Shown one piece after another: positions 1 to 30,341 of a DNA stretch of 56,343 nt (the first letter of the stretch is position 1; each line of letters starts with the position of its first letter). The stretch comes from an uncultured Anaerolineales bacterium. Lineage in GTDB: Bacteria > Chloroflexota > Anaerolineae > B4-G1 > SLSP01. Under the pieces are notes generated by a model, which searched no databases, had not been told where the DNA came from, and saw only the letters and a program-made list of their open reading frames with translations. The position numbers and the translations under genes were made by a program. The stretch covers positions 1,625 through 57,967 of the forward strand of contig CAZDSF010000004.1 of the NCBI GenBank assembly GCA_964508025.1, written 5' to 3'.

Positions 1-70
1 GCACCCCCGGGTCCCGCGGGCGGGGGGGGGGGGGGGGGGGGGCTGCGGGGGAGCGGGGGAGAAAGGGAGT

Positions 71-194
71 TGGGGTGATGGGGTGATGGGGTGATGGGGT
101 GATGGAATACACAAGCACCTTTGGGACAAAATCACCCCGTCACCTTGTCACCTTGTCACCCTGTCTCCCTGTCACCTTGTCATCCCGTCACTTC
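71..194. repeat. Inverted octamer-array hairpin element A: (GGGGTGAT)x4, ~27-nt loop, (GTCACCTT-like)x8
   Basis: GGGGTGAT units at 72, 80, 88, 96; ATCACCCC/GTCACCTT-type units every 8 nt from 131 to 194. Confidence 0.9.
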
Positions 195-205
195 CGTCGT
201 ATAAT
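177..205 (+). promoter_or_regulatory. Sigma70-type promoter of the TA operon (TTGTCA-17-TATAAT)
   Basis: TTGTCA 177-182, 17-nt spacer, perfect TATAAT 200-205, 45 nt upstream of the ATG at 251. Confidence 0.7.
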
Positions 206-250
206 ATCAGTAAATCAGTCAATGCAGAAAAACAGAAAGCGAGGCTTACG

Positions 251-532
251 ATGCCCCTCACCACTACAGTTCAAGTGCGGCAACGCGGCACACTTACCCT
301 GCCCGCCGATGTCCGCGACCGGTATAACATCCAGCCCGGCGACAGTTTTCGCCTGGTAGACCTCGATGGCATCCTGGTGTTCACCCCCCTCGCGCCGTTA
401 GTGCCCGAACTGGCCCGCGAAATCGAGCGCGCCCGCGTCGAGGCCGGGCTGAGCGTCGAGCAAATGCTGGCAGACCTCCGCGCCCAACGCGAACGCTACA
501 CGGCTGAAAAGTACAGCGCCGCCAATGAGTAA
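251..532 (+). CDS. AbrB/MazE/SpoVT-family DNA-binding antitoxin
   Basis: 93 aa; VRQRGTLTLPADVRDRYNIQPGD swapped-hairpin signature; overlaps the downstream PIN gene. Confidence 0.85.
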   Translation: MPLTTTVQVRQRGTLTLPADVRDRYNIQPGDSFRLVDLDGILVFTPLAPLVPELAREIERARVEAGLSVEQMLADLRAQRERYTAEKYSAANE

Positions 533-959
533 GCTCCGCGTCTTTGTGGACGCCGACGTCATCTTCGCCGGCGCAGCCTCACCGAGCACCCAGGGCGCGA
601 GCCATATCCTCCTGGTGATGAGCGAGCTCACGCTTATCGAGGGCATCACGTCTGAGCAAGCCGTAACCGAAGTCGCGCGCAACCTGGAAGCCAAGTTGCC
701 CACCAAACTGCCGGAATTTCGCCTGCTGGTCAGCCGCGCCCTGCACGTTGTCCCCGATCCCACACTGGCAGAGCTGCGCGCCTGCGCCGGACAAGCCGAC
801 CCCAAAGACCTGCCGTTGCTTGCAGCGGCCCTGCGCGAAGGCTGTCCGTACTTCGTCACCTTCAATATCCGCCACTACTTCCCCACCGGCGCGGCGATTG
901 CGGTTCTCCGTCCAGGGGATTTGATCCTGACGATTCGCCACACACTTGCGGGATTGTGA
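525..959 (+). CDS. PIN-domain (VapC-like) toxin
   Basis: 144 aa; VFVDADV, DPKDLPLL and FVTFNIRHY acidic PIN motifs; 8-nt overlap with the antitoxin. Confidence 0.85.
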   Translation: MSKLRVFVDADVIFAGAASPSTQGASHILLVMSELTLIEGITSEQAVTEVARNLEAKLPTKLPEFRLLVSRALHVVPDPTLAELRACAGQADPKDLPLLAAALREGCPYFVTFNIRHYFPTGAAIAVLRPGDLILTIRHTLAGL

Positions 960-1026
960 CTGGGTGACGGGGTGACAAGGTGACAAAATCACCCCGTCAC
1001 CCCGTCACCTTGTCACCCCTTCACCT
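956..1026. repeat. Inverted octamer-array hairpin element B
   Basis: GTGAC at 956, 964, 972, 980; (A/G/T)TCAC at 988, 996, 1004, 1012, 1020; lies between convergent genes and may act as a bidirectional terminator. Confidence 0.92.
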
Positions 1027-1401
1027 AAGCACCCACGTCTCAGGATGCGTAATCATTCCCACAATCGTGCCCAACATCTCATCATAGGCTTTGTACAACG
1101 GCGCGGCGGTATCGCGGTGCAAATACCCGCACTTCACCGCAAATTCCAGCCACACTTGCGTTTCCGCCGCTTCCGCTTCACAATCTGAGAGCTTGCTGAT
1201 GAAAGCGCGCTCGTAACGCCGCTTACGCCACGCCTCAGCCAGATTCGCGCACACCGAGCGCGACGAGCGGCGGATCTGATCCGTCAGCGAATACGTTTCC
1301 TCCTTCGGGAACCGCTTCGACAGCTCAAAAATCTCCATCGCCGCCGCGAACGCCTTCTGATAGACTTCCAACTCCGTATGCACACTGATTTTCTTGCCCA
1401 T
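1021..1401 (-). CDS. Four-helix-bundle protein (23S rRNA IVP / TIGR02436-like family)
   Basis: 126 aa from MGKKISV; ELEVYQKA..FPKEETYSLTDQIRRSSRSVCANLAEAW..EAAETQVWL; purine-rich RBS before 1401. The ORF-track extension to 1461 is translated repeat. Confidence 0.88.
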   Translation of the reverse strand: MGKKISVHTELEVYQKAFAAAMEIFELSKRFPKEETYSLTDQIRRSSRSVCANLAEAWRKRRYERAFISKLSDCEAEAAETQVWLEFAVKCGYLHRDTAAPLYKAYDEMLGTIVGMITHPETWVLR

Positions 1402-1417
1402 GCTTTCCCCCTTTTCC

Positions 1418-1505
1418 TGACTTGGTGACCTGGTGACTGGGTGACTGGGTGATATTGTCACCTTGTCACCTTGTCACCTGTCACCCAGTCACCCTCGTCA
1501 CCCCA
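1418..1505. repeat. Inverted octamer-array hairpin element C
   Basis: (G)TGAC/GTGAT at 1418, 1425, 1433, 1441, 1449; GTCAC at 1457, 1465, 1473, 1480, 1488, 1497. Confidence 0.92.
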
Positions 1506-4386
1506 CTGGCAGCAACACATACACCCCCAGCACATCCGGCGGGAGATGCGGACGTACATCCACGCGCACGCCCTTGAGCCGGGCCGCCGTCCGCACCCGC
1601 TGATGCGCTTCGAGCAGCGCCGCCCCGCGCGCCTCAGCGACCGCGTCCAGGTGCGGGCGCAGGGCGTCGAAAGCGTCGAGCACGCGCTGCAAGAACTGCG
1701 TCGCTTGTTGCGCGGCGATGTTGGCGGCGGGTTCGGCGCTCAACAGGCTCTCTACCTCGTCCGGCGTCAACCACTGCGCGGCCTCCGGCGCACCAGTGAA
1801 GCCCACCGTTTGGCAATCCTCGGCCAGCAATTCCACCGTTTGCCCATCGCGCTGCGTTACCAGGTGATAGCGCAGGCGCAGGAGCAACAGCGTCGTGCGC
1901 GTGGCAACCGCCCGCGTGCGCATCACGCCGCTGCGCCGGGCCACGCCGTCCAACAGCGGATCGAGCGCGGCATCCAGCGTATAGGCCGCCAGTCCTTCCA
2001 CCGCCGGATGCGTGCGCGTGAGATAGCGCGTCCCCGCCGGCGCGGGCAACTCGAAGCAGGCCGTAAAGCGCTCACTGTTGCCGACCGCTTCCCGCAGCGC
2101 TGCGTGATTGGGCAAGGTGATTTCAACGTGGCGCGGTTTGTGCGCTACCGTCCCACCGTGCAGGCGCACTACCGTCTCCACAAAACGCTGCACATCCACC
2201 CCCGCGCCGATGGCCGCCCGCACCGCGTCCCACTCGCGGGCCACCTCTTCCACCCGGAGCGTCCGCTGCGCAAAGAGCGTGCGCGATTGCTTCTCCCGCG
2301 CCGTCACATTGTCCCATTGCGCGTGCAGATTCTTGTAAACGTCATCGCTCACATCGAAGAGCGAGAGCTGCCGCCCATCCACCGCCGCCTGCCCGCCGCG
2401 CAGCAAGAGCGCGTGCATCAACGCTTGTACCACTTCACCGGTATTGGCCGGGATCGGCACCGAAATCCCCAGCGAACTGCGGATGGTCTTGTGCTTGCGC
2501 AGCAACACATCCAGCACCAGGCCGTCAATCTGGTTATCTATGCCGTAATAGGTCACCGTGCGCACGGTGGGGCTGGCCTGCCCGTAGCGATCCACGCGGC
2601 CCTCGCGCTGCTCGTGGCGAGTGGGATTCCAGGAGAGATCGTAGTGGATCACGGCGTTGAAATGCTCCTGCAAGTTGATGCCCTCGCTCAGGCAATCGGT
2701 GGCGACCAGCACCCGCTGCGGGAACGCGCCCAGTTGCGCCACCCGCTGCTCGCGCTCGGCGGGTGGCAGCAAGCCCGTCACCGCCGCGACTTCGACGCTC
2801 TTGGGCAGCGCCGCGCGCAGCTCCTCCGCCACATACTCGGCGGTGGGGATGAAGCGGCAGAAAAGGATCGGCTGGTAGCCATCCTTGAGCAAGCCTTTCA
2901 CCAGCGCTATCGCCTGGCGGAGTTTCGCGTCGTGCGTCGGGCCTTTCAGCGCTTCGGCTTGACGTGCCATGCGTAAGAGCCTTTGCCGTTGCCCTCCCGT
3001 CATCCCTTCGACTGCGCTCAGGGCAGGCCCGTCACCCTGCCACCCCGTCACCTTGTCACCCTCTCCCCCCGTCACCCCCTCGTACCACGCTCCCGGCGCC
3101 ACATCCACGCTCTCGCCTTCCACGTCATCCAGATCCAGCACGGCGCGCTCCCCGATGAGATCGGCTTCGGCAGCATCCTCGGTTTCCACCGTCGCTGAGC
3201 GCGTGCGCAGCGTTGCCGCGGCAGCCGCCGGGCTGCTCGCCAGACTGCGCAGCAGCGCCAACGCCGACCACCACCGCACCCGCTGATGGTATTGCGTGCC
3301 GCTGGTATCCTGCACCCGCTCGCGGGCGTAGGCCAACACAGTGGCGAACAACTTCTTGGTCTCGTTGCCCAGCGTGTACGTTGCCTCGGCTTCCTCGCGC
3401 GCCGGGAAGATCGTGTCGGCATCCATGTAGGCGCGCACATCGGCCCGGCGGCGTTGCACCAGATGCAGCGCCACCTCGCGCCGGACGGTTTCCTGCGCTT
3501 TGCCGGTGAGGTCATCGGGCAGCCGGGCAAAGTCCGGGCGGAGCAGCGCCAGCAGCGAGCGGAACGCCCCCTCGTCGCCGCTGTGTGGGGTCGCCGTCAC
3601 CAGCAGCAGATGCCGCGCCGGATTCTGCGCCAGCGCCTGGAGCAGTTGATGCCGCAGATGCCGCCCGCCGCGCTGCTCGGCAGAGAAGGCGCAAGTGTGC
3701 GCCTCATCCACAATGACCAGTTCCGGGCAGGTGCGCACAAACTCTTCGCGCCGCCGGGTGGATTTGATGTACTCCGTAGAGACGATGACGAAGGGGTGCA
3801 ACTCAAAGAGCGATTGGCCCACTGCCGTGCCCCGCTCCAGCCGGGCGGCGGTGCTCGCCAGCACCAGTTCCGCCTCGATGTGGAACTTCTCGGCCAGCTC
3901 GCTCTGCCACTGCTCGGCTAGATGCGGCGGGCAGAGCACGGCCAGCCGTTGCACCTCGCCGCGATCCAGCAGCTCGCGGGCGATCAGCCCCGCCTCGATG
4001 GTCTTGCCGATCCCCACATCGTCGGCGATGAGCAGCCGCACGGGGTCGAGGCGCAGCGCCATGAGCAAGGGCACCAGTTGATAGGGCCGGGGTTCGACCG
4101 CCAGCCGCGCAAACGAGCGGAACGGCCCCGCGCTAGAGCGGAAGCCCAGCCGCACCGCATCGCGCAGCAATTGGCACGAGTGGAAATCGCCGGGGCGGGT
4201 GGGGTCGGGCAGATCGAAAGTTGCGGGCTGCACGGCATCGCCTTCCAACGGCAGATACAGCCCCGCGATTTCCCGATCCGTGCCGCCCAGCGGGCGCAGC
4301 ACCAGCCATTCGGCGGAGGATTCGGGTAAGACTACCCATTCGCGTCCCCGCGCGCGGACGAGAGAGCCGACGGTGTAACCGGCCAT
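1498..4386 (-). CDS. SNF2/SWI2-family helicase (DrmD-like, defence-associated)
   Basis: 962 aa; LIADDVGIGKT Walker A, DEAH, LLVTATPH, SEGINLQ, EQREGRVDRYGQ. Confidence 0.88.
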   Translation of the reverse strand: MAGYTVGSLVRARGREWVVLPESSAEWLVLRPLGGTDREIAGLYLPLEGDAVQPATFDLPDPTRPGDFHSCQLLRDAVRLGFRSSAGPFRSFARLAVEPRPYQLVPLLMALRLDPVRLLIADDVGIGKTIEAGLIARELLDRGEVQRLAVLCPPHLAEQWQSELAEKFHIEAELVLASTAARLERGTAVGQSLFELHPFVIVSTEYIKSTRRREEFVRTCPELVIVDEAHTCAFSAEQRGGRHLRHQLLQALAQNPARHLLLVTATPHSGDEGAFRSLLALLRPDFARLPDDLTGKAQETVRREVALHLVQRRRADVRAYMDADTIFPAREEAEATYTLGNETKKLFATVLAYARERVQDTSGTQYHQRVRWWSALALLRSLASSPAAAAATLRTRSATVETEDAAEADLIGERAVLDLDDVEGESVDVAPGAWYEGVTGGEGDKVTGWQGDGPALSAVEGMTGGQRQRLLRMARQAEALKGPTHDAKLRQAIALVKGLLKDGYQPILFCRFIPTAEYVAEELRAALPKSVEVAAVTGLLPPAEREQRVAQLGAFPQRVLVATDCLSEGINLQEHFNAVIHYDLSWNPTRHEQREGRVDRYGQASPTVRTVTYYGIDNQIDGLVLDVLLRKHKTIRSSLGISVPIPANTGEVVQALMHALLLRGGQAAVDGRQLSLFDVSDDVYKNLHAQWDNVTAREKQSRTLFAQRTLRVEEVAREWDAVRAAIGAGVDVQRFVETVVRLHGGTVAHKPRHVEITLPNHAALREAVGNSERFTACFELPAPAGTRYLTRTHPAVEGLAAYTLDAALDPLLDGVARRSGVMRTRAVATRTTLLLLRLRYHLVTQRDGQTVELLAEDCQTVGFTGAPEAAQWLTPDEVESLLSAEPAANIAAQQATQFLQRVLDAFDALRPHLDAVAEARGAALLEAHQRVRTAARLKGVRVDVRPHLPPDVLGVYVLLPVG
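2996..3078. repeat. In-frame octamer array with a nested REP-like unit inside the SNF2 gene
   Basis: Minus strand GGGGTGAC GGGGGGAG AGGGTGAC AAGGTGAC GGGGTGGC AGGGTGAC GGG[CCTGCCCTGAGCGCAGTCGAAG]GGATGAC; encodes GVTGGEGDKVTGWQGDGPALSAVEGMTGG. Confidence 0.85.
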
Positions 4387-5786
4387 CAGCCGACCACCTC
4401 CTGCGGCCCGAAGAGCAATACATCTGGATCATCGGCTGCGCGCGCCTGCAACGCAGCGGTGAACCCGCTCCGGCTGAACAATGGATAATAGAGCCGCCAG
4501 CCGGTAACGTCGCCTTGCCACGCGCGCGCCCGGCGTTGCAGCGCTTCCAGTTCGGGCAGGCCCATAGGTTCATTGCGCCACTTAGCCTCGCCCAGCCAGG
4601 CGATGCGCTGTTGGTAGCTTACCGCTGCCAGATCAATCTGATGGTGCGCATCCCACCAGGAGCCAACCGCTTCGGGCCAGAAGCCGGGCGTGGCTTGCCT
4701 TGCCAGGGTATAGACCGCCGCCCGCGCCAAATCCTCCCAGGTGTAAGCTACAAATTGCTCCCAGGTGGGGCGCAAGACCTGCTCGACCAACCCCGCGCCC
4801 TGCCCCTTCTCGATGGCGCCTGTGTAGGGCAGAATGTACCGTCCCCAAAAACGGATATAGGGGTCGGCGATGTGCCATGTCCCGCGCCGGCGCTGCGTCG
4901 CCGGCGCAATCCCAATGGGCGCGCGATGTGCCACATACCCCGCCCCCTGCAATGTCGAAAGGTAGGTGGGGAGGCTGCTGCGCTCCACCCCGGCTTCCTG
5001 GGCCATCGCGGAGAGGGTGTGATAGCCGTTGGCAATTGCCCGCAGCACGGCGGCGTAATGCCGGGGGTCGCGCAGCTCATCGCGCAACAGCGTCAAGCCA
5101 TCGTGGTACAGGATGTGGGCCGGGTCGAACGCGGTATGGCTCAGGTTCGTCCACAGAGAACGCTCCGGGCGCAACTCGGCCAGATACGCGGGCATCCCGC
5201 CGGTCAGCGCGTAGGCTTCGATCAACTCCACCGGGCTGCGCTCCGGCAAGAAGCCGCGCATCTGCCCCGGCGTCAAGGGACGCAGCGTCAACTGCGCGGT
5301 GCGGCGTCCATAGAGCGGCGCATCGCGGTTGAGCACATCGCGATCCATGACGGACATATAGGAGCCGCACAACACCAGAAACACCTGGGAGTGTTGCAAC
5401 GTTTCATCCCAGAGCTTCTGGATGACAGAAGCCAGCCGCTCGCCGGCGTCGGCCAGATAGGGGTATTCGTCAAGGATTAGCACAAAGCGGCGGTCGGTCG
5501 CCAGCCGCCCCACCGCCTGGAACAATCCCAACCACGAACCATAAGAGCCGGGCGCGGCGCCTGGGCCGTGCTCCGCCTCCCACAGCGCCGCGGAGAGATT
5601 GCGCAACAACGTCTCGGCAGAATCCAGATACGCCAGGAAGTACACGCCGGGCTTATCGGCGGCAAACTCGGTCAACAGCGCGGTCTTGCCCACGCGCCGG
5701 CGCCCGGTCAGCACGATAAACTCGGCTTTGCCTGAAGCGTAGCGTTCCTTGAGCCAGGTCAGTTCTTGTTCGCGGTTGATAAACAT
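4386..5786 (-). CDS. AAA+ ATPase (archaeal-type ATPase_2) with HTH and C-terminal DUF234-like PD-(D/E)xK domain
   Basis: 466 aa; FINREQEL, GRRRVGKT Walker A, LILDEYP Walker B, QIDLAA..LGEAKW; TGATG 1-nt overlap with the SNF2 start. Confidence 0.85.
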   Translation of the reverse strand: MFINREQELTWLKERYASGKAEFIVLTGRRRVGKTALLTEFAADKPGVYFLAYLDSAETLLRNLSAALWEAEHGPGAAPGSYGSWLGLFQAVGRLATDRRFVLILDEYPYLADAGERLASVIQKLWDETLQHSQVFLVLCGSYMSVMDRDVLNRDAPLYGRRTAQLTLRPLTPGQMRGFLPERSPVELIEAYALTGGMPAYLAELRPERSLWTNLSHTAFDPAHILYHDGLTLLRDELRDPRHYAAVLRAIANGYHTLSAMAQEAGVERSSLPTYLSTLQGAGYVAHRAPIGIAPATQRRRGTWHIADPYIRFWGRYILPYTGAIEKGQGAGLVEQVLRPTWEQFVAYTWEDLARAAVYTLARQATPGFWPEAVGSWWDAHHQIDLAAVSYQQRIAWLGEAKWRNEPMGLPELEALQRRARAWQGDVTGWRLYYPLFSRSGFTAALQARAADDPDVLLFGPQEVVG

Positions 5787-5803
5787 GGGCAGCCTCCTGA
5801 TAT

Positions 5804-5847
5804 TTAATGCTTACGATTATGATAATCGTAAGCATTAAGATTGTCAA
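5804..5847 (-). promoter_or_regulatory. TTGACA-17-TATCAT promoter overlapped by a perfect 35-bp palindrome
   Basis: TTAATGCTTACGATTAT-G-ATAATCGTAAGCATTAA at 5804-5838; minus-strand -35 at 5847-5842 and -10 at 5824-5819; GGAGG RBS before the ATG at 5786. Confidence 0.8.
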
Positions 5848-5900
5848 GACACGGCTCACACCTATCGCCGCGCCAAGTGCAGAGTTTCATCCAAGTCACG

Positions 5901-7967
5901 TTACTTTGCAGAGGACGTGCCCTCCCATTCTCCCCCGCACGCGGACGAGAGAGCCGATGGTGCAGGGCACCGGTATTGACCTACTGGGTGGGCGAGAAAA
6001 GCTGGTTTACCATGCTCAAGACCTGTCAAGGTTGGCGTAGAACCAGCGGCAGGAAGACCTGGGACAACCACAGCAATAGCCCATCCATCCTCATCTCGGC
6101 TGTCGCCTAGATAAGTGGCGTATGCCAGAGCATCACCGCCTAAGCTCACCTTGACCACAAACGCATCACTCGAACCGAGCAGTGCGCTCCCGATAACTCC
6201 TGGTGTGACAGGGAAATCAAACGATGTCGTCATTCCAGTAACATAGGCTGCCCCGTTGCCATCTGTCGCAATATCCTGGGGTTCGTCATGTCCTGCGCCC
6301 CCCAGGAAAGCTGAATAATCCAGCGCGCTACCAGCTGGAACCAGCTTGGCTACAAATCCATCGCCATAACCGCCATTCAGGGTGGTATCAAAGGCACCGT
6401 CTGTGACAGGAAAGGCTGCGGATTGCGTGAAGCCGGTGACGTAAGCTGCCCCAAGCGCGTCCACAGCAATACCGGTACCAAAATCCTGGCTACTCCCCCC
6501 CCCCAGAAAGGTCGCATAAGTCAAAGCGGCCCCATTCGCAGCTAGTTTTACCACAAAGGCATCACGATCACCATTATGCACAACATCAAAGGCTCCCATT
6601 GTGGTGGGAAAATCGGTGGAATAGGTTTGCCCCGTGATAAAGACCGCGTTGTCGCTACTCACTGCGATGCTAGTGCCCTGATCAGAGCCCGTCCCGCCCA
6701 CGAACGTAGCATAAACCAGAGCGTTTCCATTGGGAGACAATTTGGCGCCAAAAGCATCCTTTCCACCGTTGTGGGTGGTATCAAACGCTCCTGGCGTAAC
6801 GGGAAAGTTAGTGGATTCAGTGAGGCCAGTGACATAAGCCGCTCCCGTCGAATCTATCGCGATTGCTCAACCCTCATCCAGAGTATTCCCGCCGAGGTAA
6901 GTTGCGTAGGCTAGCGCGTTGCCGTCCGGCGTAACCTTGACCACAAAACCATCATAGTAGCCGTTAGCCACAATATCGAAAGCCCCTGGCGTAGTGGGGA
7001 AGTTGGAGGAATTGGTGTAACCCGTCACATAGGCTGCCCCACTTTCATCCACCGCAATGTCAACACCCACGTCCCAGCTGCTTCCGCCTAGGAAGGTGCT
7101 ATAAGGCAATTGGGATGGATTGCTTTGACCTTGAGGAGCAAATGCAGGGGTGATTTGAGTGGACGAGGCGACAATAGGACACGTAATGTCAAATTTCGCA
7201 ACATCCACGGCTGAAATCGCAGGCCAGATCTTCGGCATAGCGTCCGCAACTACTGGCAGTGGTAGGATGTAGTCGCCGATCACTGTGCTAAGACGTACCT
7301 CCCCGGCTCCAGTGAATTCCGCAGCCTCCGCGCCTTCGATGTGCAATTGCACCTGGCCTAAATCCGCGCCAGGGTGGATATGCACGCGCTGCACCCATTG
7401 CCCATTCTCGCTAGTCACTTCCAGGTCAATGCCAGGGTACAAATCCACATAGCGCACGCCGCTCCACACCGGCACATCGGGTCGCCACCCGTCGGGGTCG
7501 TTGCCGAGGAAGTAGGAGACGGTGGTTTCCAACGGGGCAAAGGGTTCCAGGCGGGCGTGGGGATTGGCGTTGGGGAAACTCAGGCGCAGGTTGATGCCCT
7601 GGCGATTTTCGCTTGCGGATGGCGCTTCCGGGTCGAAGGGGAATTCCAGTCGCCGCCCGCGCGTTCTGCTCTCTGGCGCGGGCGGCTCCATCAGCGTGAT
7701 CCAGAGCGCGTCCTCGGCGAGCCAAATTGTCCCATTGCCGCCGCGCACCTGAAAGCGCGCACCATCAGCGAATTGCCCGACATTCTTGATGAACATCACC
7801 GGAGAATTGCGCAGAGTTGCATTCACGTCCACGTTTGCGGTAACCGGCGCAGCAGAGAGCGCTGTTATATCCTCTTCAGGTAGTGCGGCCGCCAGCGGGC
7901 GTCCCACTCCTGGCATAAGCAGGGCCAACAACAACATCACATTGAGCCATAGTGTGCGAGCTTTCAT
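5901..7967 (-). pseudogene. Secreted SBBP-repeat (beta-propeller) protein with an in-frame nonsense codon and a truncated C-terminus
   Basis: Signal peptide MKARTLWLNVMLLLALL; repeated YSTFLGGS..D.G..IAVD..GAAYVTG.T.S.NFPTTPGAFD units. ORFs 6867-7967 and 5901-6740 are in the same frame, separated by TGA 6869-6867 (DEG*AIAID vs EDGWAIAV in a later repeat). Confidence 0.8.
5924..5964 (-). repeat. Degenerate duplicate of the SNF2 gene 5' end
   Basis: Aligns to 4335-4377 with a 2-nt gap and ~5 mismatches; 17-nt identical core GCGGACGAGAGAGCCGA. Confidence 0.8.
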
Positions 7968-7986
7968 CCTGTAGTCCTTCTACTAG

Positions 7987-10900
7987 CTAAAGTTGATTGT
8001 TACCAAACACATACTTATGTTGCTCACAAATCCCCGCCCAGGTCTCTTTTCGATACCCAAAGCGCAGCACCGTGTACCCCGCATCCATCAGGCAGTCCGT
8101 GATCTGCACGTCCTTCGCCTGCACGTCTGGTTGGTCATGGTCGGGGCCGTCAATATACACGGCCACCCGCGTCGCGGTGTAGAGGAAGTCCGGGCGGGTG
8201 TGACAGGCCGCCACTACCACTTGCGCCTCATCCGGCAAGCGCAGGTTGCGCTCCTCCAGGAACGCCAACCAGGCACGCTCCAGGCTGCTTTCGCAGAGCG
8301 CCTGAAGACGGCGCAGGTGCCCGGCGCGGCTTTCCCCCGTGGGGCTGGCCTGTACTACGCTGTATTTCAAGATCAGCAATAGATCACGGATGGCCTGCCG
8401 GTCGAGCCGACTATGATCCGGCTGATTGGCGTAGCTCATCAGGCAGTCGTAGCACGCCGCCTCGCAATCCTCCTGCGCCCCTGGCGCGTGGTGCAAATCG
8501 GCCCCGGTCTCCGGGTCGAAGTGGCATAAGGCCAATGCCTCGCGCGCCACGGCGGGCCAGGCTGCCGGGTCTTCCACCAACTGCCGCAGCACGCCCGCGC
8601 CGCCCTCAGCAGCTTCGTAGAACAGTAACATATGCCGATGCTCGGCATCGGGCAGCGGCTCAGCGGCGAGTTCGTTATCCTCCAATTGGTAGCGCACCTG
8701 GATGGCGTTCTTGAGTGCCGGTTGCAACGAGGCCATCACTTCCAGGGAGAGCGCCTCGGTCGGTTCGAGCAAGAGACAGTTGCGGCGATCCTCCACAAAG
8801 GGAATCACCCGTTCGGTCCGCGGGCTGAGTGGGTCTTCGGGGTCGCTTTCCACCGCGTCTTGATTAGCGGCCCAGTAGCCATTCTCCACATCCAGAATGA
8901 AACCGTATTCCTCTTTGTTCTTGCGCCGCCGCCAGCCCAGATTGATACGCCACAGCGTTGCAGCATCGCCGTAAGTAAGCCGGAAGGTGACATGGTGACT
9001 TGGTGATGGGGTGGGGGGGGGCGGGGGGGCCGGGGCCCCGCCCCGACAAGGTGAAGAGGTGAATCTGTCACCTTGTCACCAGCGCCACCTTGTCCCCGTA
9101 TCACCCCGTCACCTTGCCACCTTGTCACCCCATCACCTATCACTACTTCCGCTGTTATACACCCGGACCGATCCCCGCGTTGGGCAAAGCGCACGCCCGT
9201 CTTGAGATCATACCCCATCCGCGTCCGCTCTTCCTCATCGCTGTTGATGCGGTCACGGCGCTTGGTAACGACATTCTGCATCCTAAAGAGCCCCGTCAAT
9301 GGCAGGCCCAGGGCGCGTTCACAATAGACACAGCACTCTGGCCCTGGATCGTCGCCATCTAGCGGATGTAAGTGGCCGCAATGCGGACAGAACTTAGCCC
9401 GGGTGGTGAGCACCTCCTCGCTATCTACAGGCAGGATCACCTTGTTGATCAGGTAGCGCGAGCCTTCGTGATAGACAATGCTGCGCGGCCCGAACTCCGC
9501 AATCGCCAGGAAGCGCGGGCGCGAGAGAAACTCGTCGCGTTCTTTGCGCCGTTTGCGCCCCGGAATGTAGGCGGAAAGCGGCAGACGCGGGAAATTGTAA
9601 CCCGGCAGGAAACCCTCGCTGGCAAAGTAGCGATAGCTGTAGAAATCGGATTGCGTCGCTCGTTGGAGGTCCTCGCCGGTGAGCAATTCCATCTGCGCCT
9701 CAGCTTCGGCGCGCAACCGCTTGGCGAGCTGCTTGTCTTGCGGGCTGCGCGAAATATCCTGGATGATGCCATGCTGTACCGCGCGTTGCTGCCAGGCGGC
9801 GCGATACAGGGCGCGCCAGCGCTCGCAAGCCTGGTCGAAGTCTTGCGCTACCTGGTCGAGCGTCTGCTGCAGCCAGTTGTCATGATACCAGGCTGCCTGC
9901 TGCAAGTCCTCCGCCAATGTGACAAAGATGCGGCCCAGGCGGCGCGCAGCCCGCTGCCGGGCATGTGGATCCTGAAGGTCGTGTTGCACTGAGGGCAGTA
10001 GCGTCAACGGCGGCGTTCCCTCTGTCAGCGTCAGGTCGAGCAGGTCTTTCAGCGAATGCCCCAAGGATAACCCAGCCTCTGCCAACCACACGGCATGGAC
10101 GTGCGCGCGCACCAGGTCTTCGTTCGCCAACTCCAGGCGCGGCGGCGTCACTGCTCCGGCCACCATGCGCTCTGGCCGTTTGAAGAAATACTGGTCGTGC
10201 GGACTGCCGGTGGTGCAATAGGTGAACACCAGCGCCGGTTGTCCGCTCCGCCCAGCGCGTCCACTGCGCTGCGCGTAGTTCGCCGGCGTGGGCGGCACGT
10301 TGCGCAGGTTCACGGCATTGAGCTGCGAGATGTCCACGCCCAGTTCCATGGTGGGAGAGCAGTACAGCACCGGCAAATCGGCGTTGCGGAAACGCTCCTC
10401 GCGCTCCAAACGCTCTTCGTAGGGTACCTGGGCCGTGTGCTCGCGCGCCTCAATGCCCTGAAGTTCAGCGGCCACATCCCGGTAGAAGGTGGTAAAGAAG
10501 GCATTGCTCCGCCCGCCCTGGCTGGATTGGCGCGGCGAGCGGATAGGGTCATAGAAAGGCGTGCCGTCGCCCGCGCACCAGAGCAACGCCGAAGCCGGCA
10601 CTTGATAGCCCGTCGCGTGGGGATCAAGTTTGCTTTCCACTACCTGCTGGGTCAGACTGGCGACTTCCAGCACACGCAACAGGTCGGAGATGACCTGCCC
10701 GGCATCGGCCTGGCTGAGTTTTTCGGCCAGCGCCGGAAAGGCGCCCTGGCGGCGCAGATACATCCCGAAGCCGCCGCGCGGCGAGAGATACAAGTTGCCG
10801 CCGTAATCGCCGCGTTGCGCCGCGCGCGGGAACACGATTTTGGCATGTTCCAATACCTCGTTTTCGTCAATCGCCCACGGCTCGATCAGGTACTGGCTGC

Positions 10901-13316
10901 TCTGCTGCTGGATGCGTTCTTGATGCGCCGGATCGAGATAATCCACTTTGAGCGCCAGTTCCCGGCGCAGATAGTCCAGCAGCGTCTTGGCAATGTGGAA
11001 CCGCTGCTCGGGCGTGGCCGTCGCCAGCGCCGGGTGCAGGGCCGACCATTCTGCTTCCGCCGCGCACAGGGCGTCTAGTGATTGATACCGAATACTCAGC
11101 AGTCCACACTGCTCCAGGTTCGGCGCCGTGACACGCCAGCCGCGTCGCAGATCCCGGTAGAGGCGATAAGCCAGCACTTCCCGCAGCGCCCGCTCGGTGT
11201 CATCGCGGGCTTTGAATTTGACCTCCGGGTTCACGGCGTAATACGCCAGGGGCAACCCCAAGGCTACAAACACACGCCCGGCCAGCCGGTCATGGGTTAA
11301 CCCCTCCGGGCCGGCCGCTATCACCGCGCGATGCAGAGCCGCGCGCAGCAAGCCCACTTCCACAAAGTCATTGAAGTGCCCGGCTTGCAACGAGGCATCC
11401 TGGCGGTTGTCGGTGAAACTGAGCAGTTTCCGCGCCTTACGCTCCAACGCCTCGTCGCGACGCAGCGCTCGCAGCGCGGAGAGACTCAGAATTGTGGTGG
11501 CCGTGCTCCGCCCCTCAGAGGAAAGTTCCGCCAGTTTGCCGAAGTCCGAACGCTCCCGCCCGCCGTAGGCTACACCGCAATGCAGGCAAAAGCGGAACGG
11601 CGCCTGGAGGAAGTGACATTCCAACCCCGTCGCCACGCTCTCACCCGCTGGGTTGACCGTGACCGGCGTCGGCAAGCGGCGTTTGAGGTGGCTCTTGACC
11701 TTGAGCGTCCCATCGGGACGGATATCCAACCAGTCTTCGGGGAGCCGCGCCAGCACCGCCTCCGGATCCTCCGGCCAGGGGGCCGCTGGGTTGAGATATA
11801 GAAAGCCGCTTTCACTATCCTCCTCACCACTCTGATCACCCAGGTCGCGGGGGATGTAACCGGTCGCACCGCTGTCGGGAGCGGGTTGCTGACGCACCAC
11901 ATAGTAAGGTTGGCCGCATTCCCGGCAGAAAGCCAGCGGCAATAGCACCCGCGTCCGGTCGCCCGGTACATACTGCTGGCCGCGCGTGGTGATGTAGCGG
12001 TTATCGGGCGATTCCAAGGAGGCGTAGACTGTGTCCCCACGGCTGATGAACTGGTGCAAACGGAAGGCAAAGGCCGGGAAGCCCGTTTCGGGGTTTTCGG
12101 CGGCATACCCGCCTAACAACGTGGCAGCGATCGCTGCGGCACACCGTGCTTCGGGTTGCCGGGTAAGCGCCGCCAATTCCTGCGCCGCGCCTGTCTCGCC
12201 GGTGATGCTGCGGGGTTGCGCCCGCCGCAGGCGTCCGCTCTCCGGCTCGGTGGTCAGGCCAAAGACGGATTCGATCCAACTTGCCAATGGTTGCTGCACG
12301 AAATCCGCAAAGTTCTTCGAGGGCTGAGCAGCGGAATCTGCAACTTGGGCGGTCAGCGCCGCTCGATAAGTCGGATCTTGGAAGTCGCGCTCCGGCGTGA
12401 CCCGGCGTAACGTCTCGCCGATCACCCGTTCCGGTTTGACCACTGCCCCAAACAGGCGGCTGGCGACCTCGGCGATAGTCTGCTGCTGTTCACTGAAGGT
12501 CCCGCCCGCTGCCAGCGTTGCCGAGGTGCCGATACACTGCAAAGCTGCATTCTCACTCACGTCCCGCACCCGCCGTACCAGAAGCGCCACGTCCGCGCCT
12601 TGACGCCCCCGATAGGTGTGTAATTCGTCCAATACCACATAACTCAGCCCCCGCAACCCGGCCACTATGTTCTGCTCGTGCGGGCGGGTGAGGAGTAATT
12701 CCAGCATCACATAGTTAGTCAACAGGATGTCCGGCGGGTTGACGATGATGTCTTGCTTTTCGGCATCGGATTCCTGCCCGGTATAGCGCCGAAACGTCAC
12801 CGGCGGCTGACCCTGGGGGAAGCCCTGCCCGAGGAATTTCTCCAGCTCGTTCAACTGACTGTTCGCCAGTGCATTCATCGGATAGACAATCACGGCGCGG
12901 ATGCCCTTGCCGCTGCCACGGCGTAGCACGGCATCCACAATGGGGATAATGTAAGCCAGGCTCTTGCCCGAACCCGTGCCAGTGGTGAGCACATAGTTGT
13001 CGCCGGTTTGCGCGGCCTGGATGGCTTCAAGTTGGTGCCGGTGGAGGTGCAAGGGGCGGGCTATTTGGCCCGGCGTCTTCAGTTGAAAGATCTCCCGACA
13101 CAGTGGGTGTAGTGTTCCATCCTGCACGAGCGCTGCTATCCCTGCGCCTGGTGCGAAGGCCGGGTTGAGTTGAATCAGGGGTTCGGGCCACAACAACCCG
13201 GCTTCCAATTCCGTGGTAACAGCAGTGGCAATCCGGGGATCGCTAATGTGGATGAAACTCTGAATGTAAGCGGCGTAATCCTCAACCAGGCGTTGCCGTA
13301 GCGCAAAGACATCCAT
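7987..13316 (-). CDS. Large YprA/DrmAB-like DEAD/DEAH-box helicase with DUF1998 and a C-terminal DUF559/Vsr-like nuclease; frameshift near 9005-9070
   Basis: TGTGSGKS, DELH, SAT, EHTAQV, CSPTMELGVDI..NYAQRSGRAGR and CxxC pairs in 8805-13316. The frame of ORF 7987-8889 is open upstream (..VTFRLTYGDAATLWRINLGWRRRKNKEEYGFILDVENGYW..) and carries CEAACYDCLMSY and RPDF..AVYIDGPDH..LRF. Confidence 0.85.
8984..9140. repeat. Inverted octamer-array hairpin inserted inside the DEAD-box helicase gene
   Basis: Minus strand AGGTGATG GGGTGACA AGGTGGCA AGGTGACG GGGTGATA CGGGGACA..AGGTGACA, then TTCACC..[C-rich garble]..CATCACC AAGTCACC ATGTCACC. Confidence 0.85.
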
Positions 13317-23502: not shown

Positions 23503-23610
23503 GGGAGATGGGGTGATGGGGAAATGGGGTGATGGGGTGATGGGGACGCCTCCATCCATTCGATTCCTCGCCAACACACCAATACGCTCATACGCCAACA
23601 CGGTAACACA
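23503..23610. repeat. Intergenic octamer arrays (TGGGGTGA-type, then CCAATACG-type)
   Basis: ~5 units of GGGGTGAT-like sequence at 23503-23547; degenerate CCAACACA/CCAATACG/CTCATACG/CCAACACG at 23571-23610. Confidence 0.7.
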
Positions 23611-27607: not shown

Positions 27608-28341
27608 GCCGCAGCGTCCTCGCTGGAAGCGTCCGCTGGAAGCGGCGCAATCCAGAGCGCTGTGCGCGTGCAGCGGCGCGGCGCTTCTGCCAGTCCCAGG
27701 GCGTTGAGCACCTCATCGGGGCGCCCGGTGGCGCCGGCTTGCGCCTTCAAGCGCATCTCCAAGGCCGCAGTCCACGGCGCGGACGCGGGTTCGGCGCTGA
27801 GCGTCTCGATAAGCGCGCGCAGATCGTACTGCTGGCGGTGACGGCGCCCACGTTTGGCGCGCAGCACGCTTTCCTCGGCCGTTAGCGCGGCGCAGGCCGC
27901 TTCGACCACAGCGAAATCCACATCGCGCAGCAAGACGCGGTATGTCACGGCTTCCAGCTGCTCCGAGAGCGCCGGTGCGTCTTCGGGAACGGTCTCGACC
28001 GCTGTGACGCGCAGGTCGGGCGGCAACTGTCCCTCCAGCGCGGCGCGGATGGCGCTGCCATCGAGCGGCTCCGTAAGCCAGATGTCGAGCCATTCGGCCT
28101 CGCCGCCGCAGCCCGTGGGCAACGGCGCGGCGAATTGCATCTTGGGCCGCGGATTGAAGCCCTGGCTATAGCGCAATGGAATCCCGGCGCGGCGCAGCGC
28201 ACGTTCCCATAGCCGTCCCAAATCGAGCACGGAGACATACGCCAGCGTTTTGTTGGTGGCGAAGGTTAGCCGCACGCGGGGAGATGGGCGGGGGGACAGG
28301 GGGGGCAGGGGAGCTGGGGAGCTGGTTTGTTGATCACTCAT
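27604..28341 (-). CDS. Radical-SAM-linked protein (TIGR03936/DUF2344 family)
   Basis: YVSVLDL.RLWERALRRAGIPLRYSQGFNPRPKMQFAAPLP.G. Confidence 0.85.
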   Translation of the reverse strand: MSDQQTSSPAPLPPLSPRPSPRVRLTFATNKTLAYVSVLDLGRLWERALRRAGIPLRYSQGFNPRPKMQFAAPLPTGCGGEAEWLDIWLTEPLDGSAIRAALEGQLPPDLRVTAVETVPEDAPALSEQLEAVTYRVLLRDVDFAVVEAACAALTAEESVLRAKRGRRHRQQYDLRALIETLSAEPASAPWTAALEMRLKAQAGATGRPDEVLNALGLAEAPRRCTRTALWIAPLPADASSEDAAA

Positions 28342-28361
28342 GATTTGTTACCTGTTACTCA

Positions 28362-30341
28362 TTACTCGTCACCCATTACCCGTTGCTCATTACCCGTGGC
28401 CGTTACCCGCTGCGGGCACTGCCATTCGGGGCTGCGGAGGGTGGGGTAGGCGCGCAGAATGCCGCAGGCGTGGCAGGTTTCGCGGCAGTCGCTCAGGAAT
28501 TCGCCGGCGCGGCTGCGACGGGCGTCTTGCAGCAGAAAGCGTTTTTCCACGCCGCTGAGCAGATGATCCCAGGGGAGGCGTTCGTCTTCGGGGCGTTCAC
28601 GGAACATGAATTGTGTCTCTAAAGCCGCCACCGAGCCGAAAAGCGCGGGCGCCAGCTCGGCGATGGCCTGTTCCCAGGCGTCGAGATGCCACCATTCATC
28701 CCAGGCGTCGAAGCGGGCGCCGAGCTGCCAGGCGCGTTCGATGAGCGCGTTGAGGCGACGGTCGCCGCGCGTGAGCAGCGCTTCGAGGCGCGTGCCGGGG
28801 TATTTGTTCCACGAGAGCTTGAATCCCCGCCCGCGAATGTGCCGGAAGAGCAGGCTTTGGCGCCGGGCAATGGTCTCCGCATCGGCAAAAGCCTCCCATT
28901 GGAAGGCGGTCTGTGGTTTGGGGACGAAGGTGCTGATGCTCACATGAACCTCGGTTTTGCGTCCGCCGGTGCGCACGCCGATGCGCCGCAACTCGTGCGC
29001 CAGGTCGGCGATGGCGAGCACGTCTTCATCCGTCTCGCCGGGCAAGCCGATCATGAAGTAGAGCTTCAGCGTGCGCCAGCCGCGTTGGAAGACTTCTTCG
29101 GCAAGGGCGAGCAAGTCCTCGGTGTGGATGTCCTTGTTGATGCGGCGGCGCAGCGCGTCGGTGGCGGCTTCGGGCGCGAAGGTGAAGCCGGATTTGCGGC
29201 TGCCGGTCAGCCCTTCGGCTAACGCCACGGAGAAAGCGTCAATGCGCAGGCTGGGCAGCGAGAAGCCAAGGTGCAGCCCCGCGCACTGTTGTTGGAGCGT
29301 CTGCAACAGGGCTTCGATTTCGGTGTGGTCGGCGGAGGAGAGCGAGAGGAAGCCGATCTCGTTGTAGCCGGTGGCGGCGGCGATGGCGAAGACATCGCTG
29401 GCGATTTCCGCAGCGGGGCGCTCGCGGACGGGCCGCGTGATGATACCCGCCTGGCAGAAGCGGCACCCGTGCGTGCAGCCGCGTTGAATCTCGATGACGC
29501 CCCGGTCATGGGTGGTCTCGATGTTGGGCACAATCTGCCGGATGGGGGTGGGGGGCAGCGTCCCCACGATGCGGCGCTGGATGGGCAACGGCGCTTCGGG
29601 GATCAGCGGCGCGACGCCGGTAAAAGCGCCTTCGGCAGTGAATTCCGCGCGGTAGAAGCGCGGCGCATACACCCCCTCGATGCCGAGCAGCGCGCGGAGC
29701 TGCGCCTCGCGCGGCAGCGCGCGCACGGTCTGGTACGCTTCCAGCAGCTCGAGGATAACGTCTTCGGCCTCGCCGATGATGAAGAGATCGAAGAAGTCGC
29801 TGATGGGTTCGGGATTGAAGGCCCCGTGTCCGCCGCCGATGACCAGGGGATGGCGCGCATCGCGGTCGGCGGCGCGGATGGGCAGCCCGGCGAGATCAAG
29901 GAGCTCCAGAGTGTTGGTGAAAAGCTGCTCGTAGGCTGTGCTGATGGCGAGGATATCGAACGCCGCGACGGGGCGATAGCTCTCCAGGGCATAGAGCGGC
30001 AGCCGGGCCTGGCGCAGCGCGGCGATCATATCCGGCGCGGGCAGGTATGCGCGTTCGGCGAGGGTGTCTGCGCGGCGATTGAGCAGCTCGTAGAGGATTT
30101 CCAGCGCGAAGTTGGACATCCCCAGCTCGTAGAGATCGGGGAAGGCGAGGCAGACGCGCGTGGCGACGGCGTCCCACGGCTTGTGAATGGCGTTGAATTC
30201 GCCGCCGACGTAACGGCCCGGTTTCTGGATTCGATGTAACAGCGCTTCGAGGTTTTCCCAGGGGATGGGCCGGGCGCTGGCAGCTGCTTCCTGGTGGCGG
30301 GGCGCCGGTTGGGGCTGTGTGGTGTGTTGTTGGTCTCTCAC
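28362..30341 (-). CDS. B12-binding radical SAM protein (TIGR03960 family)
   Basis: KPGRYVGGEFN, AFPDLYELGMS, EIQRGCTHGCRFCQAG, FVPKPQTAFQW. Confidence 0.88.
   Translation of the reverse strand: MRDQQHTTQPQPAPRHQEAAASARPIPWENLEALLHRIQKPGRYVGGEFNAIHKPWDAVATRVCLAFPDLYELGMSNFALEILYELLNRRADTLAERAYLPAPDMIAALRQARLPLYALESYRPVAAFDILAISTAYEQLFTNTLELLDLAGLPIRAADRDARHPLVIGGGHGAFNPEPISDFFDLFIIGEAEDVILELLEAYQTVRALPREAQLRALLGIEGVYAPRFYRAEFTAEGAFTGVAPLIPEAPLPIQRRIVGTLPPTPIRQIVPNIETTHDRGVIEIQRGCTHGCRFCQAGIITRPVRERPAAEIASDVFAIAAATGYNEIGFLSLSSADHTEIEALLQTLQQQCAGLHLGFSLPSLRIDAFSVALAEGLTGSRKSGFTFAPEAATDALRRRINKDIHTEDLLALAEEVFQRGWRTLKLYFMIGLPGETDEDVLAIADLAHELRRIGVRTGGRKTEVHVSISTFVPKPQTAFQWEAFADAETIARRQSLLFRHIRGRGFKLSWNKYPGTRLEALLTRGDRRLNALIERAWQLGARFDAWDEWWHLDAWEQAIAELAPALFGSVAALETQFMFRERPEDERLPWDHLLSGVEKRFLLQDARRSRAGEFLSDCRETCHACGILRAYPTLRSPEWQCPQRVTATGNEQRVMGDE

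Follow-up and report, generated by a model that had tools for sequence, protein, structure and literature searches.

Hairpins of inverted octamer arrays at gene ends in an Anaerolineales defence island and their association with a PF05635 four-helix-bundle gene

In a stretch of 56,343 nt from an uncultured Anaerolineales bacterium (Chloroflexota; Anaerolineae; contig CAZDSF010000004.1, positions 1,625-57,967), here called the window, we analysed three hairpins that are built from inverted arrays of 8-nt units and that lie beside an AbrB/PIN toxin-antitoxin pair, a gene for a small four-helix-bundle protein and an SNF2 helicase gene (Table 1). These genes belong to a defence island that takes up positions 1 to 13.3 kb of the window; the remaining 43 kb are housekeeping DNA. 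Homologues of its sequences likewise place the organism in the Anaerolineae (Chloroflexota). A sequence-only reading of the window had proposed that the hairpins are recombination sites bordering two cassettes, the toxin-antitoxin pair and the four-helix-bundle gene, in the manner of integron attC sites, or alternatively that they are a non-autonomous mobile repeat. The cassette interpretation was only partly supported and the underlying phenomenon proved broader; the alternative fits the data.

Each hairpin combines a purine-rich run of GGTGAYnn (the F arm) with a pyrimidine-rich inverted run of nnRTCACC (the R arm), both at an exact spacing of 8 nt. All three were recovered where the sequence-only reading had placed them, and they exceed chance expectation. 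GGTGAY/RTCACC hexamers number 68 and 70 in the window, compared with ∼30 expected per strand, and they cluster at exactly 8-nt spacing. Hairpin 2 fills the whole space from the PIN gene to the four-helix-bundle gene, which are convergent, and provides the stop codons of both; hairpin 3 lies 17 nt upstream of the four-helix-bundle start codon. The earlier statement that the hairpins delimit genes exactly held to the level of single codons, as the TGA of the outermost array unit is the stop codon of the PIN, four-helix-bundle (1021-1023, minus strand) and SNF2 (1498-1500, minus strand) genes. The predicted folds of hairpins 1, 2 and 3 have energies of -67.2 (z -4.9), -50.8 (z -7.5) and -51.6 kcal/mol (z -7.0), respectively, the minus strand of hairpin 3 folds at -50.6 kcal/mol, and 0 of 200 shuffles were as stable. 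Hairpins 2 and 3 were found again in independent assemblies of the same organism (L213-L215) and are therefore not assembly artefacts; an orthologue of hairpin 3 is present in L127. The additional copies reported inside both helicase genes, and the single arm further downstream, which does not fold, were confirmed as well. An Rfam search with positions 1-9400 returned no rRNA family and only sub-threshold matches to eukaryotic microRNA hairpins. To the left of hairpin 1 there is a G-rich or poly-G stretch and then the window end. Poly-G or G/C-rich runs directly adjoin arrays at window positions 18-42 and 9008-9045 and at positions 56-87 of the metagenome contig L183, at the contig end; these runs may lack biological meaning and stem from two-colour sequencing artefacts or from assembly joins.

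Table 1. Positions of the arrays and associated features in the window
Feature	Position	Strand	Remarks
Hairpin 1	71-194		F arm 71-105, (TGGGGTGA)x4.4 at 100% match; ∼25-nt loop; R arm (nnGTCACC)n 131-194
Sigma-70-like promoter of toxin-antitoxin operon	177-205	+	-35 TTGTCA is the last R-arm unit of hairpin 1; 17-nt spacer; TATAAT; 11/12 matches
AbrB/MazE-type antitoxin gene	251-532	+	PF04014; TIGR01439
PIN_3 toxin gene	525-959	+	PF13470; stop TGA 957-959 is in the first unit of hairpin 2
Hairpin 2	956-1026		F arm 956-985, R arm 988-1026
Four-helix-bundle gene, 126 aa	1021-1401	-	PF05635/TIGR02436, 23S-rRNA-IVS (intervening sequence) protein family, Avd-like
Hairpin 3	1418-1505		F arm 1418-1453, R arm 1457-1502
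SNF2 helicase gene	1498-4386	-	PADLOC: DpdE best model, DrmD next
One-arm array in SNF2 helicase gene	3028-3078	-	Read in frame (GVTGGEGDKVTGWQGDG); hypervariable linker
DruE-like DEAD+MZB+DUF559 helicase gene	7987-13316	-	Profile matches
Full hairpin in DruE-like helicase gene	8986-9138		G/C-rich centre; one-base frame shift within 9008-9045
One-arm array	23503-23545	+	F arm between co-directional F420 ligase and luciferase-like monooxygenase genes

The four-helix-bundle protein of the window has sequence matches to PDB entries 2RLD and 2GSC. We used it to scan metagenomes and examined 80 loci (66-83% identity) of at least 520. Within 250 nt of the gene, arrays with an 8-nt period had a density of 3.35 per kb, compared with 0.058 per kb in the rest of those loci, a 58-fold difference, and 61 of the 80 loci had at least one array. 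The dominant layout, seen in at least 32 loci, starts with an F array; the gene follows after 0-50 nt that include a ribosome-binding site, and an R array comes 3-40 nt after the gene. In these loci and in L207, the PF05635 reading frame therefore lies in the loop, as it does in the gene-bearing IVSs of 23S rRNA. Both arms of an element share their unit variant (GGTGACAA, GGAGACAA, GATGACAA, GGGGTGAA, GGGTGAAT and others), with agreement at 7.4 of 8 positions within an element compared with 6.1 of 8 between elements (0 of 5000 permutations as high). An orthologous pair with the same flanking genes was found empty and filled: L045 (Phycisphaerales) has an F arm, an 18-nt loop and an R arm, whereas L207 has an F arm, the four-helix-bundle gene and an R arm. 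This pair is decisive for the architecture, i.e. the gene lies in the loop. The idea of recombination sites bordering cassettes gains no support here, since the cargo is in the loop of one inverted array and not between two sites. Of the two cargo units proposed, the four-helix-bundle gene stood, given its association with arrays, and it is the sole cargo of the hairpins in the window.

Among relatives of the window locus, the four-helix-bundle gene occurs at different junctions and is array-flanked in each. The order is SNF2, ∼25 F units plus 4 R units, the gene and an F arm in L127; DUF6036, 10 F units, the gene and 8 F units in L128; and SNF2, an inverted CCGACnnn array, the gene, an array and a methyltransferase in L130. 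The gene is missing from L001-L006 and L132, and these loci show no hairpin where SNF2 has its 3′ junction, an outcome that the cassette reading had itself named beforehand as speaking against it. On a 5.2 Mb contig (L226, 9028-10470), the gene and its arrays separate the beta from the gamma subunit gene in an operon for a 2-oxoacid:ferredoxin oxidoreductase, and a one-arm array (9028) links the alpha and beta genes of this operon. Cultured cyanobacteria encode homologues with 58-68% identity on complete plasmids (Oscillatoria nigro-viridis PCC 7112, Nostoc sp. MS1, N. punctiforme PCC 73102 and Leptolyngbya BL0902), where the gene lies between a purine-rich 7-8-nt array and its downstream complement; the Oscillatoria plasmid has a second purine-rich array between the gene and the complement. 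The cyanobacterial units are host-specific (GGGAGAGT, GCAGGGGA and GGAGAnnn). Our search found at least 8000 homologues in the PF05635/TIGR02436 family, some of them 79-80% identical between Chloroflexota, Planctomycetota and Verrucomicrobiota, which argues for horizontal spread of the gene. Unit type does not track protein lineage: proteins that share a unit type have a mean identity of 0.73, and those with different types 0.70. All copies seen were between or within protein-coding genes, and none was an insertion in 23S rRNA helices 9, 25 or 45. Contigs that carry a close homologue of the PIN or the four-helix-bundle gene were mostly ∼1-2 kb long, which fits arrays breaking short-read assemblies.

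Hairpins of this type also occur as a gene-less family. A scan of one genome per species for three F units, a 2-32-nt gap and three R units yielded at least 120 loci in Planctomycetota, Chloroflexota, Bacteroidota, Verrucomicrobiota and Acidobacteriota. Carriers among the loci listed were Gemmataceae, other Planctomycetota, Phycisphaerales, Anaerolineae, Caldilineaceae, Chloroflexia, Saprospiraceae, Victivallales, Lentisphaerales, an Akkermansia metagenome-assembled genome, Acidobacteriota and Alcaligenaceae. The consensus unit across loci is GGTGACAA/TTGTCACC, and the element ends are TGACAA...TTGTCA. Predicted folds of family elements span -51 to -91 kcal/mol and the arms are complementary, giving a long stem of the kind that characterises IVS elements.

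The gene pairs that flank these hairpins were convergent in 31 cases, divergent in 5 and tandem in 54 (binomial P ∼1e-5, convergent versus divergent). Gene 3′ ends facing a hairpin were within -60 to +40 nt of the first TGA of the element in 114 of 138 cases, and an array TGA is the stop codon of 55 of these genes (the first TGA in 32, the second in 10 and the third in 13). By these crude gene calls, the family resembles repetitive extragenic palindromic (REP) elements in being extragenic palindromes concentrated at gene 3′ ends. The window hairpins mark out genes because they occupy gene ends. An impression by eye that the hairpins are placed just upstream of start codons was discarded, as counting showed a predominance of 3′ ends. 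The sequence of the units offers a reason for such positions. A run of (GGTGACAA)n puts a TGA in each frame within 24 nt, and (TTGTCACC)n is open in all frames. The purine arm came first in 84 pairs and second in none, in a scan whose pattern demanded this order; in loci outside the scan pattern, the purine-first order prevailed by 6 to 0, or by 39 to 3 if a gene in the loop was allowed. Since the purine arm has a TGA in every frame and comes first on both strands, a gene arriving from either side is closed at once.

The genes next to the gene-less hairpins are ordinary. The 140 reading frames adjoining them belong to 226 Pfam families, each with at most three occurrences, including sigma-54 activators, epimerases, pyridoxal phosphate enzymes and ABC transporters. 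The cassette reading had suggested an enrichment of accessory genes beside the arrays, and this was not borne out: the 120 loci and 140 neighbouring frames showed no excess of toxin-antitoxin, restriction or four-helix-bundle genes. With jackhmmer, starting from the gene-less hairpins, the four-helix-bundle gene adjoined 1 of 120 loci, whereas the reverse test from the gene gave the strong association described above. No hairpin was found in the viral contigs scanned, in either orientation, and the element is therefore not phage-borne. The Gemmataceae genome SMAG_U11579 has one and the same hairpin at nine or more contig ends, each time with identical 30-nt flanks that are themselves inverted repeats (L027, L037, L039, L042, L044, L052, L057, L058 and L094); this looks like a larger multi-copy element, similar to a miniature inverted-repeat transposable element (MITE), that breaks the assembly.

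The toxin-antitoxin pair behaved differently from the four-helix-bundle gene. Its promoter arrangement, TTGTCA-17 nt-TATAAT, is kept in L221, L222 and L216. The 90% identical L221 has the same block of toxin-antitoxin and four-helix-bundle genes with arrays, the 81% identical L216 lacks the GGTGAC array and retains just its last unit, TTGTCA, and the 76% identical L223 has no array whatever. Conservation of this one unit in a relative without the rest of the array is explained by its second role, as the last R unit doubles as the -35 hexamer. Arrays beside the pair are confined to close relatives (at least 90% identity) and, judged by these sequence comparisons, the pair is a neighbour of the hairpins, not cargo. 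Upstream of the toxin-antitoxin orthologue in L216 (2400-2560) there are runs of (CACGTGCC)n and (CTTTTCGC)n.

Arrays were also found inside genes, where they turn over between close relatives. The SNF2 linker that contains the in-frame array of the window has a different unit number, another repeat or no repeat in close relatives. At the site of the hairpin in the DruE-like helicase gene, L001 has a complete in-frame hairpin and L004 just two to three units. L001 has six arrays and L004 has none, in genes that are 86-90% identical; the L001 methyltransferase has four array inserts, in loops, that are absent from L004. In the SNF2 array, the unit whose TGA would be in frame reads TGG (Trp) and, for arrays within genes in general, in-frame TGA positions are replaced by TGG or GGA. 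Therefore, selection keeps array-bearing genes open. The frame shift in the large helicase gene may be a sequencing artefact, and so the helicase is not taken as a proven pseudogene. One-arm arrays between co-directional genes tended to have the purine arm on the sense strand (14 versus 4) and those inside coding regions the pyrimidine arm (13 versus 3); both counts are suggestive, being contaminated by half-detected hairpins. The 8-nt period recurs with unrelated unit sequences at orthologous positions (L130 and L216); in L130, inverted (CCGACnnn)/(nnnGTCGG) arrays surround the four-helix-bundle gene and lie in the SNF2 linker (11745-11880 and 12300-12370).

Five of the six arrays of the window and all six of L001 (4010-18780) lie within the defence-island genes, several of them in frame in helicases and a methyltransferase, and the housekeeping DNA flanking the island is almost array-free. 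Further genes of the island encode an ATPase_2/DUF234 protein (PADLOC candidate PDC-S27) and two beta-propeller (SBBP) proteins, which occupy the slot between the two helicase genes (4386-7967). The insert in this slot differs per relative: in L001, L004, L128 and L130 it encodes CcbP, a peptidase M23/PKD protein, a leucine-rich repeat protein, or AbiEi plus an ATPase. Loci related to the island also encode an MmeI/Eco57I-type methyltransferase and a PLD protein. A look-up of the exact SNF2 protein sequence gave no matching contig. The housekeeping part of the window includes genes for F420 metabolism, RpoD, DnaG, a pyrophosphatase and two-component systems. At the junction of its DUF2344 and radical SAM genes (28286-28413) there are other short tandem repeats, GGGCAGGG/GGGGAGCT, and TTACCCGTTGCTCA with a period of 14.

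Taken together, the three hairpins belong to a dispersed family of stem-loop repeats that is found at gene ends and whose full-length form carries a PF05635 gene, and we propose that this family has a role in transcript ends or RNA processing and spreads selfishly. We assign this reading a probability of roughly 60%. On RNA, base-pairing of the two arms would give an extended duplex by which transcripts are ended or insulated, acting as a terminator that needs no U-tract, as a 3′ stabiliser or as an RNase III site. One-arm copies in operons (23503 in the window and 9028 in L226) could serve as a stop codon joined to a Shine-Dalgarno-like linker (AAGGTGA, AAGGAGA), and the outermost TTGTCA unit could double as a -35 box. 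Slippage would alter the number of units. Gene-less hairpins may be internally deleted derivatives of the gene-bearing element or its insertion targets, and the element would spread as selfish DNA with the help of a mobilising enzyme. As regards the features of a MITE, inverted arms are present and one gene-bearing form with a gene-less counterpart exists (L207 and L045); the sole gene is that of the four-helix-bundle protein and not a transposase.

Several observations weigh against this proposal. It is position and predicted fold that suggest a function at transcript ends or in processing, and in a consensus scan none of the three window hairpins was followed by a T-run, in contrast to a Rho-independent terminator. 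Full hairpins persist in frame within long genes, where a terminator would be harmful unless melted by translation. No mobilising enzyme was found among the window frames, and no target-site duplication was seen in the flanks of hairpins or four-helix-bundle loci. The four-helix-bundle gene of the window itself sits between two complete hairpins and not inside one. Several four-helix-bundle loci are stably inherited across flanks that are 80-99% identical, and mobility, if real, is therefore slow. Finally, the 120 gene-less loci were picked by a pattern that already demanded the purine-first order, and their gene calls were crude, being based on GC content at third codon positions and not on a trained gene finder.

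In one alternative, the arrays are a neutral by-product of replication slippage and of template switching, arising and turning over where the sequence is permissive, as in protein linkers or intergenic spacers, with neither function nor mobility, and their position at gene ends reflects tolerance. This would suit the varying unit number among orthologous loci, the two- to three-unit 'seed' in L004 where L001 and the window have a full hairpin, the replacement of units by other families at orthologous positions (CCGACnnn in L130 for the GGTGAC of the window, and other octamers in L216), and in-frame copies that display stop-codon purging only. We consider it unlikely, because one unit sequence is common to five phyla, arrays are enriched 58-fold beside one horizontally spread gene, and a single genome has multiple identical elements with identical flanks; moreover, orientation is exclusive and stop codons are in excess at the first unit (32 versus 10 and 13). 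In another alternative, the octamers are iterated DNA or RNA sites for a sequence-specific protein, which could be the four-helix-bundle protein or a nucleoid or global regulator, with hairpin potential being secondary. Avd binds nucleic acid, and an Avd-like protein is encoded here in physical linkage with the arrays. Across phyla, both the strict 8-nt period and a GGTGA core are kept, and paired tandem octa- and heptanucleotide sites in Geobacter metallireducens have been read as sites for a regulator or for integration host factor (IHF)/HU (PMC2700814). Such binding arrays seem quite unlikely here, as unit sequence is independent of protein lineage, proteins that are 58-68% identical occur between units as unlike as GGTGACAA, GCAGGGGA and GGGAGAGT, an 8-nt spacing is at odds with the DNA helical repeat, and neither the complementarity of the arms nor their exclusive purine-first order is predicted.

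The integron-like system from which the analysis started is very improbable. There, the hairpins would be analogous to attC sites and a site-specific recombinase encoded elsewhere would use them to insert small accessory genes into defence loci. Among the 48 reading frames called in the window, all of them scanned with Pfam, there was no integrase, transposase, recombinase or reverse transcriptase, in line with the earlier remark that no integrase is visible. The likeness to attC did not hold, since the core motifs RYYYAAC/GTTRRRY are absent from all 125 hairpins (four in the window and 121 others). In the predicted folds, the stems are near-perfect, with no recurrent bulge. Cassettes would be expected to share an orientation, but the toxin-antitoxin pair is on the plus strand and the four-helix-bundle gene on the minus strand. 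The system would account for the exact bracketing of these two units, for the array-flanked four-helix-bundle unit at different junctions in the defence loci L127, L128 and L130, and for the differing island content among relatives; it would leave aside the cargo within the loop of a single hairpin, the arrays in frame within genes, the gene-less hairpins beside housekeeping genes and the relatives that lack both the cassettes and the junction hairpin.

The stem-loop family that we favour has its closest precedent in the IVSs of 23S rRNA, which are gene-bearing in Coxiella, Leptospira, Brucella and Xanthomonas and gene-less in Salmonella, Yersinia and Campylobacter. In Coxiella, the IVS forms a stem-loop whose terminal stem measures 28 bp and which encloses an S23p reading frame; RNase III cleaves it, and it is viewed as selfish DNA (PMC4990558). 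S23p (PF05635) reading frames lie in the 23S rRNA IVSs of Coxiella, Leptospira and Brucella, such IVSs are considered to be horizontally acquired, and other genera have gene-less versions (PMC4990558). The hairpins share with these IVSs complementary termini, the same protein family in the loop, gene-bearing and gene-less versions, and a sporadic distribution that suggests horizontal spread. In contrast to the IVSs, they lie between protein-coding genes or at their 3′ ends, not in helices 9, 25 or 45, and their stems consist of tandem 7-8-nt units whose sequence varies by host.

Other repeat families show partial similarity. Like the REP elements of Enterobacteria and Pseudomonas and their composite forms (bacterial interspersed mosaic elements, BIMEs, and hairpin-forming REP doublets, REPINs), the hairpins are dispersed, hairpin-forming and lineage-specific, have many copies, and lie at gene 3′ ends and between convergent genes. 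REPs are single palindromes of 20-40 nt with a conserved GTAG head and are mobilised by REP-associated tyrosine transposases (RAYTs). The arms described here are tandem octamers, the associated gene encodes a four-helix bundle, and no RAYT/Y1 transposase is present in the window. The cyanobacterial short tandemly repeated repetitive (STRR) heptamer arrays are likewise built of short units in tandem and lie between the genes of large environmental genomes, and in cyanobacterial plasmids 7-8-nt purine-rich arrays flank the four-helix-bundle gene. Classical STRR units (CCCCAGT, TTGGTCA and CAACAGT) differ from the arrays here, and we found no report of STRRs with inverted arms or a PF05635 link in the searchable literature. 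G. metallireducens has paired tandem 7-9-nt repeats on opposite strands (GTTGCTYN, TCTCCGTS and MTYCTGA classes), between and within genes, at tens of copies per genome; their units differ from ours, the authors read them as regulator or IHF/HU sites, and no four-helix-bundle link was reported (PMC2700814). With integron attC sites, the hairpins have in common imperfect inverted repeats beside small genes, often toxin-antitoxin genes, and they differ in having no integrase, no R/L core boxes, no co-orientation of genes, cargo in the loop and mostly housekeeping flanks. We regard the finding as an IVS-like stem-loop element outside rRNA with tandem-repeat arms. Neither the repeat sequence nor its association with the gene was found in the searchable literature, which held nothing relevant on octamer or palindromic repeats in Anaerolineae or Gemmata, and Rfam has no matching family.

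A bolder possibility, to which we give little credence at present, is that the PF05635 gene and its inverted tandem-repeat arms constitute a class of mobile stem-loop elements that has so far gone unrecognised and that is related to the rRNA IVSs. Such elements would pass from phylum to phylum and build their arms anew in every host. They would seed large numbers of gene-less hairpins and one-arm arrays, the cyanobacterial STRR-like arrays included, which would then be used as stop, terminator, ribosome-binding site and -35 modules. The Avd-like protein might be the cofactor of an enzyme, e.g. a reverse transcriptase, that adds the units of 8 nt to the two 3′ ends at a break; if true, this would explain the invariant purine-first order.

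The arrays have practical consequences, as they break short-read assemblies, give rise to spurious 'SPCHLVT'/'GDKVTG' peptides and may be behind frameshift calls in metagenome-assembled genomes. To our knowledge, the carrier taxa largely lack canonical terminators, and the hairpins may explain gene closure and insulation in these organisms. The result connects rRNA IVSs with tandem repeats of the STRR type and with the paired octamers known from Geobacter. PF05635/TIGR02436 proteins have been known until now from rRNA IVSs and as relatives of the retroelement protein Avd, and the arrays give this family a concrete context.

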